A stretch of DNA of 64,000 bases from Candidatus Poribacteria bacterium (GTDB taxonomy: Bacteria; Poribacteria; WGA-4E; WGA-3G): the NCBI GenBank assembly GCA_965198235.1, contig OZ240248.1:2048001-2112000 (forward strand), given 5' to 3'. A program made the position numbers and the translations under genes. Positions 56,132 to 60,434 of this stretch are shown here, piece after piece. The notes under the pieces are model-generated. The model was not told the DNA's origin, searched no databases, and worked only from the letters and a program-made list of their open reading frames with translations. Within the stretch, counting starts at the first letter, position 1. Each line of letters starts with the position of its first letter.

Positions 56132-56472
56132 AGATTATTTCCAATCTTGAAAGTGTAGAATGTATCCTGAGACCGTTAATATTAAAGGTGAGTTCAATAT
56201 CAGGAATAGGCATGTGTCAAAAGGAGAACCCCTTGATTTTTGCTGTCCGCTATAAAAGGATTTTTTATGAAAGTTTTCCTTAAAAATGTTACACTGGTGT
56301 AACATTTAGTGTACAGTGAATATCGGCGGAAAACCCAGTGAATATCAGGGGCCATAGGCTTTTCTTTTTTGGTTTTCCGCGGTGAAAAAAATAATTTAGC
56401 GGAAAGTGTAACATTTTGGATGTTGTGAATCTCACAAAGGTAAAATTTTATCCTTATTCCCAGTATAGTATA

Positions 56473-56501
56473 ATTATATCATGTTTTCGCGCGGGTGTCA
56501 A
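56473..56501 (-). promoter_or_regulatory. Sigma70 promoter facing the HTH gene
   Basis: Perfect TTGACA-17-TATAAT with extended TG. Confidence 0.7.
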
Positions 56502-56634
56502 TTTCTTTTACGATGTTCACGGACTTTCATCCCAATCCTTCAGGTTTGGGATGAAAGTCCGCCCTCGTGAATAAGACCGAGGCGTTGTTTAAAAAATAAG
56601 CGTGACTTTGCTATTAAAATGTGTTATAATTAAT

Positions 56635-56718
56635 GTATCACGTTGGCAGACATTCATAGCATAATCGCAAGGTTATGTGTCTGCCTACCCACTCTGAAGG
56701 GGTTAAAAAGCGCGATAC
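56635..56718 (+). ncRNA. Structured RNA in the tnpB 5' leader (copy 1)
   Basis: Four stems with compensatory changes relative to copy 2; preceded by GTGACT-17-TATAAT. Confidence 0.65.
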
Positions 56719-56728
56719 GTGAACTCCA

Positions 56729-57838
56729 GTGAAAACAGAGAGATATGAGTTATATCACCAGTCACATACGATCGTTATCGGCAATCTGTTAGCCGATATG
56801 CACCAAGTGCATGTCCACCTCCTAACGTTGCAGCGAAGGTATTTCCGTATCTACGGTAAATATGCGTCTTTTGAACGGATATGCAAACATATCACGAAGT
56901 TAAAACAACGGACAAAACCGCATTGGAAACAACTTCCAAGTCAAGCGATCCAAGACGTTGCGAAGCGTATTGATTTAGGATACCAGCGTTTCTTTGATAA
57001 TATCGAAGATCGTCAGTCTGGTAAAACGACACGACGAGTGGGTAAACCGCATATCAAACCGCAGCATAAATACACCTCTATAACATTGAAACAAGCGGGC
57101 TATAAGATTGAAGGCAATCGTATCTATATCGGCTGTCTAAAAAAGTCGTTCACCTTTTGGAAACACCGTGACTTTACTGGCACGGTCAAGAGAGTCACAA
57201 TCAAACGTGATAATGTCGGTGCTTATTATTTAACAATCGTCTGTGAGGATTCTGAACCTACTGAAGCCCTCCGACTGACAGGTAATGTAGCAGGGGCGGA
57301 CTTCGGTATGAAGACGTTTTTGACCCTTTCAGACGGTATCAAGATAGAATCCCCCGAGTTCTATAAGCAAAGCCTGAATGAAATCCGTTCAGCAAATAAA
57401 GCACTCTCACGAAAGCAATATCTCTCTAATGGTTGGTATCGTGCGAAACGCCACCTCGCACGTGTCTATAAGAAGATCGGCAATAGAAGGCGAGACTGGT
57501 TCTTCAAGTTGGCCCTGCGTCTTCTGCGAAAGTATGATACGCTTGCGATTGAAACCCTGAACCTTGATGGCATGAAACGCCTGTGGGGTCGGAAAGTCTC
57601 TGATCTCGCCTTCGGTGAGTTTGCTCTCATACTTCAGTGGATATGTGCGAAATACGGTAAAACATTGGCAAAAGCAGGACAGTGGCAACCGACGACAAAA
57701 GCCTGTAACGTCTGTGAGCATAAGAATGAGACGCTCACACTTGCGGACAGAGACTGGACATGTCCGAAATGCAGCACCTCTCACGATAGAGATATAAATG
57801 CTGCGAAAAACATTTTGCGGGTAGGGGTAGCGGTCTAA
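56729..57838 (+). CDS. tnpB: RNA-guided endonuclease TnpB
   Basis: RuvC GADFG / IETL / DRDINAAKNI; Zn finger CNVC...CPKC. Confidence 0.93.
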   Translation: MKTERYELYHQSHTIVIGNLLADMHQVHVHLLTLQRRYFRIYGKYASFERICKHITKLKQRTKPHWKQLPSQAIQDVAKRIDLGYQRFFDNIEDRQSGKTTRRVGKPHIKPQHKYTSITLKQAGYKIEGNRIYIGCLKKSFTFWKHRDFTGTVKRVTIKRDNVGAYYLTIVCEDSEPTEALRLTGNVAGADFGMKTFLTLSDGIKIESPEFYKQSLNEIRSANKALSRKQYLSNGWYRAKRHLARVYKKIGNRRRDWFFKLALRLLRKYDTLAIETLNLDGMKRLWGRKVSDLAFGEFALILQWICAKYGKTLAKAGQWQPTTKACNVCEHKNETLTLADRDWTCPKCSTSHDRDINAAKNILRVGVAV

Positions 57839-57969
57839 CGAGACCATAAAACCGATCTGATTCGGAATAAATCCCCGCAGGTGGAGCGACAATAAGACGT
57901 TTGACCCTTTGGGAAAAACGCAGTTGCTATGAAACCGAAGCCCAACCCTTTAGGTTTGGGTGCTATCAC

Positions 57970-58287
57970 AATCAGAAACTCGGTTTCGAGACAGATCTCC
58001 TCATCCCGGAAGAAGATCCATTTTTTGGGATCGTGAGTCGTGATGATGTCCGGATTCTGCTCAAACATATCACCGAGGATGTCCATCCAGTTCCAAACCA
58101 CACCCGACACGAGTGGGCGAGATGGGACGCTTTCATACTGGTTTCTGATCCTGACGCGTTGTTTGCTGAGTTCCAGTCCCGTGGCTTAGAGTTCCACGAA
58201 ACCCTCGCAGACACCGACGACGGTCTCCGTGCTTTTGAACTCAAGGACCATGATGGGTATGTTTTGTGTTTTGGGAAACCGCTTTGA
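57970..58287 (+). pseudogene. VOC/glyoxalase-bleomycin resistance protein, 5'-truncated at the IS right end
   Basis: NQKLGFE...V.DPDALF.EF..RG...GLRAF...D.DGYVL.FG. Confidence 0.75.
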
Positions 58288-58461
58288 ACGGAGAATCGTC
58301 TGAATCAGGATTTACGAGATTTTAAGATTGCCAGGATAAGCGCGGCACGCTGCATTGAAATCCTACGCCACACCTCGCCTTGTAAAAATGTAAAGGATAC
58401 AAAATTAGAATTCATCTGTTATTTCTTTTTAAGCTAAATCTAATAAGCGGCGGCAACATTG

Positions 58462-58701
58462 TTAAGAAGCTCCGGCACGGTGAGACGGTACATCAATAAC
58501 AATTTCGTTTTGAAGCGCGCGTACGGCGTAGGCGAGTACCGCCCGAATGCTTTTCTCACTTAGATCCGGGTAATCTGCAATGATCTCCTGATTTGACATA
58601 CCGCTTGCTAATAATCCCAATATATGTTCAACACTCAGACGAGTGCCTTCAACAACTGGCTTTCCACCAAGGATTTCTGGATCCGCAATAATTCTAACCA
58701 C
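58462..58701 (-). CDS. DUF433 family antitoxin-like protein
   Basis: RIIADPEILGGKPVVEGTRLSV...YPDL; GAGG RBS before GTG 58701. Confidence 0.88.
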   Translation of the reverse strand: MVRIIADPEILGGKPVVEGTRLSVEHILGLLASGMSNQEIIADYPDLSEKSIRAVLAYAVRALQNEIVIDVPSHRAGAS

Positions 58702-58908
58702 AATTTTTACCTCTCTATTGGAAAATACGTTAACCTTATCTAACCTTCCGAGACTAAAACCCAATCCTTTAGGTTTGGGATACAGTCTGTCCCTTGTGAA
58801 TGAGACCGTGGGTCTCTGTTGAAAAAAGACTTTCGGAAAGCACCCCACACAGTGACTGTGTCGGGTGACTTTCCGTGACTTTTAGCCAAAAATGTGGTAT
58901 AATTAAGA

Positions 58909-58990
58909 GTATCACAGTGGCAGACAGTTCAAGCGTAATCGCAAGGTTACGTGTCTGCCTACCCACTTGAACGGGGTAAAACTCTGTGAT
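58909..58990 (+). ncRNA. Structured RNA in the tnpB 5' leader (copy 2)
   Basis: Same fold as 56635-56718; GTGACT-17-TATAAT at 58875-58903. Confidence 0.65.
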
Positions 58991-59041
58991 CTGTGAGATA
59001 CCCTGCGAAACACAAAACACAAACTTTTCAAGGATAAGACG

Positions 59042-60217
59042 TTGCGTCACCTGCACGACGAGTGCAATATCTCTGGCGTTGTCAAGAATCACTTCCTTGC
59101 GCTGTCTATGCGATATTACCGCCGCTATGGGAAAGGCGTGTCGTATTCCAAAATGTCGAAGCATTTGACGAAACTGAAGCGTCTTGAAAAATACCAGCAT
59201 TGGAATATTCCCTACTCATGGGCGTTGCAAAATGTTCTCAAGCGTCTGGAAACCCAGAGTTTCAAAGAAATAAAAACGCTCGGTAGAGGTCACCCGAAAT
59301 TCAAGTCCTGTCAGAAACACAAAGGGATGACGTTTCGCGGTGAACAGGTCAAAATAGAAAAAGTGCTGGACGCGCAAAAACACGAGAGGAACCACCCGAC
59401 GTATAAAATCCGACTCAACGGTCGTTGGTATCGGTTTGCTCTGCACCGTGAAATCAAAGGCATCATCATTGAAGTTCATGTAACGAGGGACGCACTCGGA
59501 GATATGTATATCACCCTGACAGAAGACTATACCGAAATTAAAATTGAACCCAAGACGGGTCAAGCTGAAGGGTTTGATTTTGGTATTAAAGACTTCTTGA
59601 TCGGCAGTGATGGTCATAGATATATGTCTCCGATGTTCTACAAACAGAATGCTGAAAAGTTGGCGACAGCACAAAAGGCGTATTCTCGCAAGGTCAAAGG
59701 TTCTCAGAATCTCGAACGCGAACGCAAGAACGTTGCACGTATCCATAAGAAGGCTGCGAATCAGAGAGCAGACCACCATTGGAAACTTGCGATAGAACTT
59801 TGTCGTCAGTTTGACATCCTGTTCTTTGAAGATTTGAACCTTCGCGGCATGAAAGCACTCTTTGGCAAACAGGTATCTGACCTTGGTTTTGGTGAGTTCT
59901 ATCAGAAACTCAAACACCAGAGTCACAAGCGTATCCGCTCTGTGCTGAAAATCAATCGGTGGTCTCCCACCACAAAGTGCTGTTGTGTGTGTGGAGATAA
60001 AAATGAAAATCTCACGCTATCAGATCGTCACTGGACGTGTCCAAGTTGTCATACACACCTGGACCGCGACGAGAACGCTGCTATGAACATTCTTAAGGAA
60101 GGGATAGCTTCCTTTGGGTTAGGAGTTGTAAGACCTATTGTTTTGTTTAACAAGATCGTAGGCACCTCCGTTGAATCTAACCATCCGATTCTGAATTCCA
60201 CAAATGCTTCTGCTTAA
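59042..60217 (+). CDS. tnpB: RNA-guided endonuclease TnpB (frame is open from CTG 59003)
   Basis: GFDFG / FEDL / DRDENAAMNI; CCVC...CPSC. Confidence 0.93.
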   Translation: MRHLHDECNISGVVKNHFLALSMRYYRRYGKGVSYSKMSKHLTKLKRLEKYQHWNIPYSWALQNVLKRLETQSFKEIKTLGRGHPKFKSCQKHKGMTFRGEQVKIEKVLDAQKHERNHPTYKIRLNGRWYRFALHREIKGIIIEVHVTRDALGDMYITLTEDYTEIKIEPKTGQAEGFDFGIKDFLIGSDGHRYMSPMFYKQNAEKLATAQKAYSRKVKGSQNLERERKNVARIHKKAANQRADHHWKLAIELCRQFDILFFEDLNLRGMKALFGKQVSDLGFGEFYQKLKHQSHKRIRSVLKINRWSPTTKCCCVCGDKNENLTLSDRHWTCPSCHTHLDRDENAAMNILKEGIASFGLGVVRPIVLFNKIVGTSVESNHPILNSTNASA

Positions 60218-60434
60218 TGATTGCAGAAGCCCAAGTCTTTAGACTTGGGTCTATCACAAGCCACTGTGCGGCACTTTCTGGGTAAGGTATCGCATCAATA
60301 AATTCTTGGGCGAAAGGTTGTGTCGATGCAAGTAACGCACGCTTTGGGAGACCGTGTGTTAAGACGGGTGGTCCAAAAGGCATGAACGTTGACAATATAT
60401 TCTGTGGCGTTTGCATTCCAGTTGACATTGTTTG

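Follow-up and report, generated by a model that had tools for sequence, protein, structure and literature searches.

Two tnpB genes in a 64-kb stretch of the genome of a Candidatus Poribacteria bacterium (assembly GCA_965198235.1, contig OZ240248.1, positions 2,048,001 to 2,112,000; the window hereafter) are each preceded by a leader of ~90 nt, which lies between a sigma-70-type promoter and the start codon. The genes belong to two tnpB-only insertion sequences of the IS200/IS605 kind, element 1 (~56512-57969) and element 2 (58740-60257). Comparison of many copies confirms that the block is a real, conserved, covarying and pseudoknotted structured leader. The best reading of its sequence is a structured messenger RNA (mRNA) leader that would work by alternative pairing and that is uncatalogued in Rfam 15. 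With somewhat more confidence than doubt, we propose that it is a cis-acting two-state pseudoknotted 5' RNA acting as a gate, or at least a throttle, on the initiation of translation of the gene behind it. The downstream gene is mostly tnpB, but the module is generic.

A conserved, covarying and pseudoknotted leader

The preliminary description of this sequence had placed a conserved block upstream of both tnpB genes, and the block is present there (56602-56728 in element 1). The leaders of elements 1 and 2 are ~85% identical, whereas the TnpB proteins share 40% identity with each other and the flanks and genes are far less alike. Within the window the pattern GGCAGAC-N-GTCTGCC has exactly two occurrences, 56645-56685 and 58919-58959, against an expectation of none from shuffled sequences. 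A promoter scan also recovered the shared GTGACT-17-TATAAT promoter that had been described for both elements, with TG before the -10 box, at 56602-56630 and 58875-58903. In element 1 (forward strand, as for all window features below unless stated) the -35 box GTGACT is at 56602-56607 and the -10 box TATAAT at 56625-56630, separated by a 17-nt spacer with the TG extension, and the two boxes give 10/12 matches. The promoter of element 2 was identified both by the scan and by comparison with a sister copy. GTGACT is a minority form in the leader family, whose -35 consensus is TTGACA/TTGACT. Among 130 members the spacer measures 17-18 nt, and the -10-like hexamer mostly ends 2-7 nt upstream of where P1 pairing begins.

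The fold comprises four helices, P1 to P4, and a pseudoknot. In element 1 the 5' strand of P1 (GTATCACG plus TT, 56635-56644) is the partner common to two 3' copies, and the 5' end of the RNA is predicted to lie in or at this strand. P2 pairs GGCAGAC (56645-56651) with GTCTGCC (56679-56685), and P3 is CATAATC-GCAA-GGTTATG (56660-56666, loop 56667-56670, 56671-56677). The P4 hairpin (56687-56703) is closed by ACCC (56687-56690) and GGGT (56700-56703). The pseudoknot pairs the internal-loop strand TTCATAG (56653-56659) with CTCTGAA in the P4 loop (56692-56698). The tandem 3' strands of P1 (56711-56722) consist of a proximal copy, CGCGATAC (56711-56718), with one A.C mismatch, and a distal copy, CGTGA (56718-56722). 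The leader of element 2 (58909-59002) has the same parts: a P1 5' strand GTATCACAG (58909-58917), P2 at 58919-58925 with 58953-58959, a pseudoknot GTTCAAG/CTTGAAC, P3 as CGTAATC-GCAA-GGTTACG, and tandem P1 3' strands CTGTGAT (proximal, 58984-58990) and CTGTGA (distal, 58991-58996).

Covariation was scored first within the genome of the window and then across genomes. The own-genome set of 20 distinct copies, aligned with MAFFT, has 97.1% of cells paired and 15 pairs with changes on both sides. Its covariation score is 0.348 compared with 0.115 for shuffled alignments (0/500 reach the observed score), and slid controls give at most 0.073. P1, P3 and P4 are supported in this set, and P2 (GGCAGAC/GTCTGCC) is invariant in all 20 copies. 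The large alignment of type 1, the main subfamily (A4; 92 distinct copies from ~100 loci in many genomes), was fitted to a model that contains P1, the pseudoknot and P3 and so favours these helices, with P2, P4 and the distal pairing lying outside the model; 96.3% of its cells are paired, with both-side changes in 26 of 35 pairs. The A4 score of 0.451 is not reached by any of 500 shuffles (0.152), and slid controls do not exceed 0.071.

Individual helices can be followed in the same data. For P1 with the proximal copy, both-side changes are found in 8/8 pairs of A4 plus two inner pairs, with 91.7% of cells paired, and in P3 6/7 pairs change on both sides. P2 covaries across subfamilies, as GGCAAGC/GCTTGCC, GGACCGAC/GTCGGTCC, GGAAACCAGC/GCTGGTTTCC and GUGGGAGA/UCUCCCAC. 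P4 is weakly tested: ACCC/GGGT becomes TCCC/GGGA in some copies, and CCG/CGG is found in type 2, the second subfamily. The pseudoknot is formed by the 7 nt after GGCAGAC with the P4 loop. In A4 99.1% of its cells are paired and 6/7 pairs change on both sides, and it is fully paired (7/7) in 134 of 143 distinct leaders with 46 different sequences. As the pseudoknot links the loop of P4 with the internal loop between P2 and P3, the fold is a three-way junction with two arms tied side by side. The four helices of the preliminary description thus all hold on larger alignments, P4 with the reservation just given, and the covariation persists in 92 copies. That description had missed the pseudoknot and the tandem duplication of the P1 3' strand.

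The second subfamily shows the same fold with different sequences. Type 2 was found through one tnpB of the window's own genome that has a divergent fold and was missed by the first covariance model, and relatives detected by BLAST are present in 36/65 genomes of the genus, the window's own included. From the 26 type-2 leaders, one truncated sequence and four degenerate ones were removed; in the plain MAFFT alignment of the other 21, 98.6% of cells are paired and 21/33 pairs show changes on both sides. A model built from type 2 only matches two type-1 copies (E 2e-9 and 1e-8), which indicates that the subfamilies are related.

U.G wobbles in P3, found in 30 of the 92 copies of A4, assign the fold to the sense strand. 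Most leaders have a GNRA loop in P3, and the leader of element 1 alone has a folding z of -2.7. Given the sense-strand wobbles, the position directly behind a promoter and the mostly GNRA loop, the leader probably acts as RNA. A coding explanation was rejected: a short ATG...TGA frame in element 1 is not kept in element 2, which has ACG, and the substitutions and a 1-nt indel follow no codon pattern.

Two tandem partners for the P1 5' strand

P1 has two tandem copies of its 3' strand, such as CGGATAA CGGATAT or CTTGATA CTTGATA, and both track the changes of the 5' strand. The distal pairing has both-side changes in 7/7 pairs, with 89.9% of cells paired, although it lies outside the covariance model. 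At least two helices of at least 5 bp with the 5' strand can be formed in 138/141 type-1 leaders, and the two copies are mostly 7-8 nt apart. For type 1, 3-6 nt separate the end of the distal copy from the ATG in 100/134 leaders, and the ATG is 82-84 nt from the start of P2 in 102/125. The two positions before the start (-2/-1) are conserved as CC, and 93/125 leaders have CCA no more than 6 nt from the ATG. By sequence, the distal helix spans about -4 to -12 or the AUG itself.

In type 2 the copies are 14-19 nt apart, and the spacer often has a sequence like that of a Shine-Dalgarno (SD) motif, GAGGA or AAGGA. The second copy usually includes the ATG, as in AACTATGC; ATG or GTG lies inside it in at least 14 of 26 leaders, and two complementary copies are present in 20 of 26. 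The type-2 distal helix has both-side changes in 6/8 pairs, with 95.2% of cells paired. A third form, the g6 variant from another genus of the order, was read in five copies. It has a 12-bp P1 of unrelated sequence, and the start region CCAUGAAA complements its 5' strand, UUU(U)AUGG.

SD sites are in use in this genome: it has the canonical anti-SD sequence, CACCUCCUU, and an SD-like motif was found upstream of 48% of 2732 crudely called starts compared with 10% in the background. In type 1, the spacing from the distal copy to the ATG leaves no room for an SD, so that initiation would depend on the 3' tail of the leader. The two tnpB genes of the window had been described as lacking both an SD and an ATG. 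The lack of an SD holds and is general for type 1, but the lack of an ATG is confined to these two copies; 125 of 131 family members examined have an ATG start.

Among the roles proposed earlier for the block, a translational switch is the best anatomical fit: the 5' strand has two covarying partners, and the translation start is covered by the distal one. What the comparison shows is the fold, the two alternative helices, where these stand relative to the start codon, and how the leader is distributed. In the mechanism that we propose, the leader would be RNA whose transcript starts at P1, the two states would differ in translation, and something would shift the balance between them. The core would be a three-way junction in which the arms P2-P3 and P4 are locked side by side by the 7-bp pseudoknot, and the first bases of the transcript would be a shared strand with two mutually exclusive closing partners. 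In state A, pairing of the 5' strand with the proximal copy would close the junction tightly and leave the next ~12-15 nt and the start codon single-stranded, so that translation would be possible. In state B, the 5' strand would pair with the distal copy, which lies 3-6 nt before the AUG in type 1 and contains the AUG in type 2 and the g6 variant. The core would then be closed via a long linker, and the initiation region would be masked. The balance might be set by folding kinetics, by temperature or ions, or by a protein that reads the shape. A small-molecule ligand seems unlikely as the trigger. Short junction strands that differ between subfamilies and downstream genes without a metabolic theme both disfavour a metabolite sensor.

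The calculated energies of the two states are close, which speaks for the proposal. With pseudoknot and tertiary contacts left out of the calculation, the proximal state has a median advantage of 2.7 kcal/mol, the difference is at most 1 kcal/mol in 26/134 leaders, and 16/134 favour the distal state. The minimum-energy fold of element 1 pairs the 5' strand with the distal copy because the proximal copy has the A.C mismatch. Several observations weigh against this interpretation. The proximal state is usually the more stable, so that without a trigger the RNA would be mostly 'on' and the distal copy could be a minor modulator. The omission of the pseudoknot and tertiary structure from the energies of the two states also counts against the proposal, as does the fit of A4 to a model that favours P1, the pseudoknot and P3. 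In several contexts other than tnpB (L102, a MoeA gene with its own AAGGAG; L260; L264), the distal copy lies 20-45 nt upstream of the likely start, and masking of the start cannot be the output there. An intact host gene (L202) has one strand copy and its disrupted paralogue (L201) has three, which indicates that copy number is not absolutely fixed and that replication slippage contributes. Finally, in the four sponge metatranscriptome runs, all from a single study, in which the leader and tnpB are covered, the coverage is by contigs, which show neither ends nor strand.

A more ambitious version of the two-state proposal is a new class of signal-responsive RNA switch. An input such as temperature or ions, a stress-induced protein or a shape-read ligand would pick the copy and co-ordinately turn on TnpB together with GIY-YIG, Abi-TIR and protease genes. 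We put this forward tentatively, as a possibility that we on balance doubt.

The usual stability of the proximal state would also suit a constitutive 5' module that does not switch. In such a module the compact knot, its 5' end base-paired, would shield the mRNA from 5'-end-dependent decay and fix a low, SD-independent level of translation, and the second copy would be a single-stranded landing pad derived by duplication. P1 starts within a few nt of the predicted transcription start, unrelated genes use the leader, and the junction bases are few and not conserved between subfamilies, all of which agree with it. However, a landing pad need not track the 5' strand, yet 7/7 and 6/8 distal pairs change on both sides in the two subfamilies, and the g6 variant repeats the design although its sequences are unrelated. 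We consider a purely constitutive module rather unlikely.

Downstream genes and alternative explanations

TnpB domains were found in 82 of the 95 downstream open reading frames (ORFs) of at least 100 aa, and the remainder are mostly truncated or broken tnpB. All 25 model matches in the window's own genome were assigned to tnpB elements. By coordinates, 24 of 35 TNB-domain matches in this genome have a leader match ~1 kb upstream, and three leader-less TNB matches adjoin a Y1 transposase gene. In the complete genome G159, 24 of 27 model matches are of the transposon type and three of the host type, as judged by eye from end hairpins and TnpB-like N-termini. A small membrane-protein gene of G159 that carries a leader is interrupted by a 428-aa ORF on the opposite strand (L222:1075-2361, minus strand), by its look a putative transposase. 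The interrupted gene has three tandem P1 3' strands and its intact paralogue one.

Other genes also use the leader. One copy precedes the complete MoeA gene mentioned above. Others stand before similar small secreted-protein genes in three genomes, which were taken as orthologous, and the fold is kept at these loci with three different, perfectly complementary pseudoknot sequences. Type-2 leaders precede genes for TnpB, a GIY-YIG nuclease, a protein with AbiJ_NTD4 and TIR, DUF4268, a trypsin-like peptidase and lipoprotein-like proteins. The AbiJ_NTD4 protein with a CAP12/Pycsar-TIR part is at L262:302-1408 (minus strand), the GIY-YIG protein at L260:1583-2422 (plus strand), and the trypsin-like peptidase with a CARDB domain at L270:1566-3092 (plus strand). 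Defence-type and secreted genes therefore use the same leader as the transposon. No transposon left-end hairpin was found in the inspected 110-250 nt upstream of the leaders at non-TnpB host loci. The presence of the leader before MoeA, GIY-YIG, AbiJ-TIR, protease and secreted-protein genes indicates that it is not a TnpB-specific component.

This bears on the idea that a protein binds the knot as an operator and selects the state, either TnpB itself, by autoregulation and with the leader as a second ribonucleoprotein (RNP) RNA, or a global RNA-binding protein. P2 is almost invariant in type 1 while the neighbouring helices are hypervariable, which suggests sequence-specific recognition, and the 24 of 35 TNB-domain matches with a leader ~1 kb upstream would agree with autoregulation. 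P2 nevertheless covaries between subfamilies, and the leader is common to TnpBs that are only 40% identical and have different-looking 3' guide regions, besides preceding non-TnpB genes. The leader covariance model gave no second match at the 3' omegaRNA regions of the elements. In 96 elements, omegaRNA end included, the pseudoknot and P1 7-mers and their complements showed no excess elsewhere in the element over control 7-mers; matches for the pseudoknot strand numbered 10 and 7 compared with 10.2 and 14.8 for controls, and those for the P1 strand 18 and 22 compared with 19 and 17. An operator of this kind is improbable. The earlier suggestion of an extra component of the TnpB system or second RNP RNA is not borne out, as the same fold stands before non-TnpB genes and has no extra complementarity to the omegaRNA end.

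Two candidate pairings with the 3' region were rejected. The 5' strand of P1 resembles the right end (TATCAC..), but the right end stays TATCAC (or CTTGAC/TATGAC) whatever the sequence of P1, which speaks against pairing of the leader with the right end or omegaRNA. The pseudoknot strand of element 1 matches GCTATGAA in the 3' region; this match is a coincidence because the segment is conserved in copies with other pseudoknot sequences.

A metabolite or ion riboswitch, in which a ligand bound at the junction would stabilize proximal P1 and turn translation on, draws on the resemblance of the architecture to aptamers and on the strand-exchange expression platform. The purine and tetrahydrofolate-I (THF-I) classes are P1-closed three-way junctions with a long-range loop contact. 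The leader shares with metabolite riboswitches mutually exclusive pairings that involve the initiation region, but it has no conserved unpaired pocket. Unpaired junction bases number 0 (P1-P2), 1-4 (P2-P4) and 1-5 (P4-P1), and they differ between subfamilies (UA compared with ACAA/GCCA/GAA; UUAAA compared with G). TnpB, GIY-YIG, AbiJ-TIR, protease, MoeA and small secreted proteins share no metabolic or transport theme. We regard this riboswitch as quite improbable.

A self-cleaving ribozyme, or a tRNA-like processing signal for RNase P or Z that trims the leader to give a near-leaderless tnpB mRNA, would fit a selfish element whose pseudoknotted fold is compact and about as large as a ribozyme, and also the conserved CC at -2/-1 and the CCA near the ATG. 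Scans at E up to 10 gave no match to an Rfam ribozyme or tRNA-like model, however, no invariant unpaired core is shared across subfamilies, and a promoter directly upstream means that no 5' trimming is needed. ARAGORN found nothing, and the tRNA-like reading was rejected. The ribozyme-like element of the preliminary description thus finds no match among known ribozyme families and nothing that speaks for cleavage, and such a role is very unlikely. Least credible is a single-stranded DNA structure for IS200/IS605 transposition: the elements move as single strands and the fold is on the strand that carries the end hairpins, but the fold is kept with compensatory changes at host loci without an end hairpin in the inspected upstream 110-250 nt, the leader always lies between promoter and start codon, and G.U wobbles are frequent and the P3 loop mostly GNRA.

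Host elements, distribution and relation to known RNAs

Both elements of the window have a subterminal hairpin at each end and a sharp terminus at TATCAC. End hairpins, tnpB domains and Y1 transposase genes elsewhere in the genome identify them as IS200/IS605 elements of the IS1341 type, that is, tnpB-only. The genome has six Y1_Tnp genes, none of which adjoins a leader copy. The left end of element 1 (56508-56560) has a TTAC flank at 56508-56511, likely the target or target-adjacent motif (TAM), a start at ~56512 and a hairpin GGACTTTCATCCCAA...TTGGGATGAAAGTCC at 56521-56560, which may be the binding site of the Y1 transposase. Homology with a second genomic copy of element 1 starts at TTACGATG. 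The tnpB gene of element 1 (56729-57838) encodes 369 aa from a GTG start without an SD, and matches the Pfam families OrfB_IS605 (1.9e-22) and Cas12f1-like_TNB (2.5e-19), which also match the tnpB of element 2. The right end of element 1 (57941-57969) has a subterminal hairpin and the terminal TATCAC at 57964-57969. In all intact copies the divergence of the flanks starts right after TATCAC, and transcriptome contigs depart from the reference at 57969, where the guide-RNA (omegaRNA) scaffold of element 1 is expected to end.

The left end of element 2 (58740-58779) has a TTAT flank at 58736-58739, a start at 58740 and a hairpin CCCAA...TTGGG at 58760-58779, and homology with its sister copy starts at TTATCTAACC. 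Its tnpB (59003-60217) has 404 codons from a CTG at 59003, in a stop-to-stop ORF of 58997-60217. The start site reads GATACCATGCGAAAC in the sister copy, with ATG, compared with GATACCCTGCGAAAC in element 2, with CTG at 59003-59005. The sequence suggests that this gene is a decaying start-codon mutant or else uses CTG as a rare start codon. The -35 box of element 2 was remodelled from TTGACT to GTGACT by a 44-nt insertion; the sister copy has TTGACT and lacks the insertion. The insertion is palindromic (GGAAAG...CACACAGTGACTGTGTC...CTTTCC, window ~58832-58875) and interrupts the -35 box. Upstream of the leader at G000:C1:2575448 the same insertion recurs; it could be a very small mobile or hairpin element. 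The element-2 family also includes, at G000:C1 ~4993760-4994900 (minus strand), a 405-aa tnpB that has a left-end hairpin but no leader, with a gap of ~50 nt between hairpin and ATG, and that offers a natural leader-less comparison.

Two further features lie near the left end of element 1. Just outside it, on the minus strand and directed leftward, is a promoter-like site TTGACA-17-TATAAT with 12/12 matches and a TG (56473-56501). Between the left-end hairpin and the promoter, a short hairpin CCTCG...CGAGG is followed by CGTTGTTT (56563-56590), and a similar hairpin with a T/A-rich run is found at the equivalent place in many leader copies. The hairpin at 56563-56590 was not flagged by a terminator scan; by analogy with IS200, it could block read-in transcription.

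Within the genomes sampled, the leader is confined to part of a single, little-studied phylum of sponge symbionts. In the window's own genome, 22 copies were found by BLAST and 25 by the covariance model, and two fully scored searches gave 2-52 copies per genome. In a sample of 151 genomes of the phylum, matches were present in 56/56 genomes of the own genus, 16/43 of the rest of the family and 5/26 of a second family, and in 0/25 genomes of seven further families. Public records with the motif are titled Candidatus Poribacteria, which are sponge symbionts. Pattern matches in a Ruminococcus metagenome-assembled genome (MAG; L082), in Streptosporangium (L118) and in a Chloroflexota MAG (L128) were not matched by the model and are taken as chance.

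In the metatranscriptome runs, one contig extends upstream of the promoter. The leader and the right-end guide region have the greatest summed contig depth, but this sum is a poor measure of RNA level. At 57900-57963 it reached 323, 221 and 1126 in three of the four runs compared with ~4-60 over the gene; such sums pool many copies and cannot rank regions or measure RNA level. The contig coverage gives weak support for transcription of the leader, with DNA carry-over possible, and has no bearing on mechanism.

The leader was compared with the 4227 models of Rfam 15, which include IS605-orfB-I, HEARO, known ribozymes, riboswitches and group I introns. At the gathering score there were no matches in the 64-kb window. 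At E up to 10 nothing relevant was found in 56400-60400, in eight diverse type-1 loci or in eight type-2 loci, and the expectation that the block matches no described Rfam motif is upheld for all of these. IS605-orfB-I has no match in the window (E up to 10) or in the whole genome (E up to 1), the latter being a weak negative because none of 14 control genomes matched either. RAGATH-18 matched below threshold (29.8 bits against a gathering score of 44.9; E 0.037) within the 3' part of a tnpB-carrying locus (L210:1489-1542, plus strand), and the matched stretch is possibly part of the guide RNA scaffold. A full-text literature search on TnpB with untranslated region (UTR), pseudoknot, translation or riboswitch returned, among the papers listed, none that by its title or the start of its abstract concerns the structure of a tnpB 5' leader, and a search joining Poribacteria and TnpB returned no paper. 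The 'Poribacteria-1' RNA motif, reportedly from Weinberg et al. 2017, would be a candidate structured RNA of the same phylum and might be this leader, which is the main threat to novelty. The name is absent from 8.1 million searchable texts and from the main text of that paper (PMC5737381).

Several known RNAs are related to the leader by position or by design. The mRNA leader of IS200 tnpA has a stem-loop that hides the ribosome-binding site, and IS200 has a terminator-like hairpin at its left end. The leader described here comes from the same superfamily and has the same order of left-end hairpin, promoter and structured leader, whose placement would limit translation of the element's gene. 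Whereas IS200 has a single hairpin over the SD before tnpA, the present leader has a three-way junction, a pseudoknot and two alternative closing helices; it is mostly found before tnpB, has no SD in the main subfamily and also precedes non-transposon genes. Strand-exchange translational riboswitches and RNA thermometers, such as the three-state add adenine riboswitch, likewise use one strand with two exclusive partners, one overlapping the initiation region, and a P1-closed three-way junction with a long-range loop contact. Unlike these, the leader has no conserved ligand pocket and no coherent regulon, and its competitor strand is a literal tandem copy of the P1 3' strand. The omegaRNA (reRNA) of TnpB is also a structured RNA encoded by the same elements, but the leader lies between promoter and start codon, ~1.3 kb from the right end, and the right-end TATCAC does not covary with P1. 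Like IS605-orfB-II, the leader is a candidate structured RNA beside tnpB (orfB) found by comparative genomics.

The same holds for IS605-orfB-I, which is RF03065 in the Rfam 15 release (PMC11701678); that model has 214 positions and does not match here. A group I intron, that of the IStron, is described in a preprint (bioRxiv 10.64898/2026.03.11.711047) on the 5' side of tnpA/tnpB transposons, and is thus also a 5' structured RNA in TnpB-carrying transposons of the IS200/IS605 type. Unlike that intron, the leader is ~90 nt long, has a promoter directly upstream and no splice-site architecture, and matches no Rfam group I intron.

Cas12 descends from TnpB, which is itself a compact nuclease for genome editing. 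Very little is known about how the transposons that carry TnpB regulate its production, and published work has centred on the 3' guide RNA. At the opposite end of the tnpB message, the leader provides another RNA structure, likewise very well supported by the comparison of copies, and it adds a large, clean family to the uncatalogued structured RNAs. If the signal-responsive reading were true, no dedicated device for the translational control of TnpB would have been described before this leader, which would also be a compact, transplantable two-state module. The arrangement of one strand with two tandem partners could be reused as a synthetic two-state part. Genes for a nuclease, an abortive-infection protein and a protease carry the same module, which suggests that these uncultured sponge symbionts have a general means of holding harmful genes in check.

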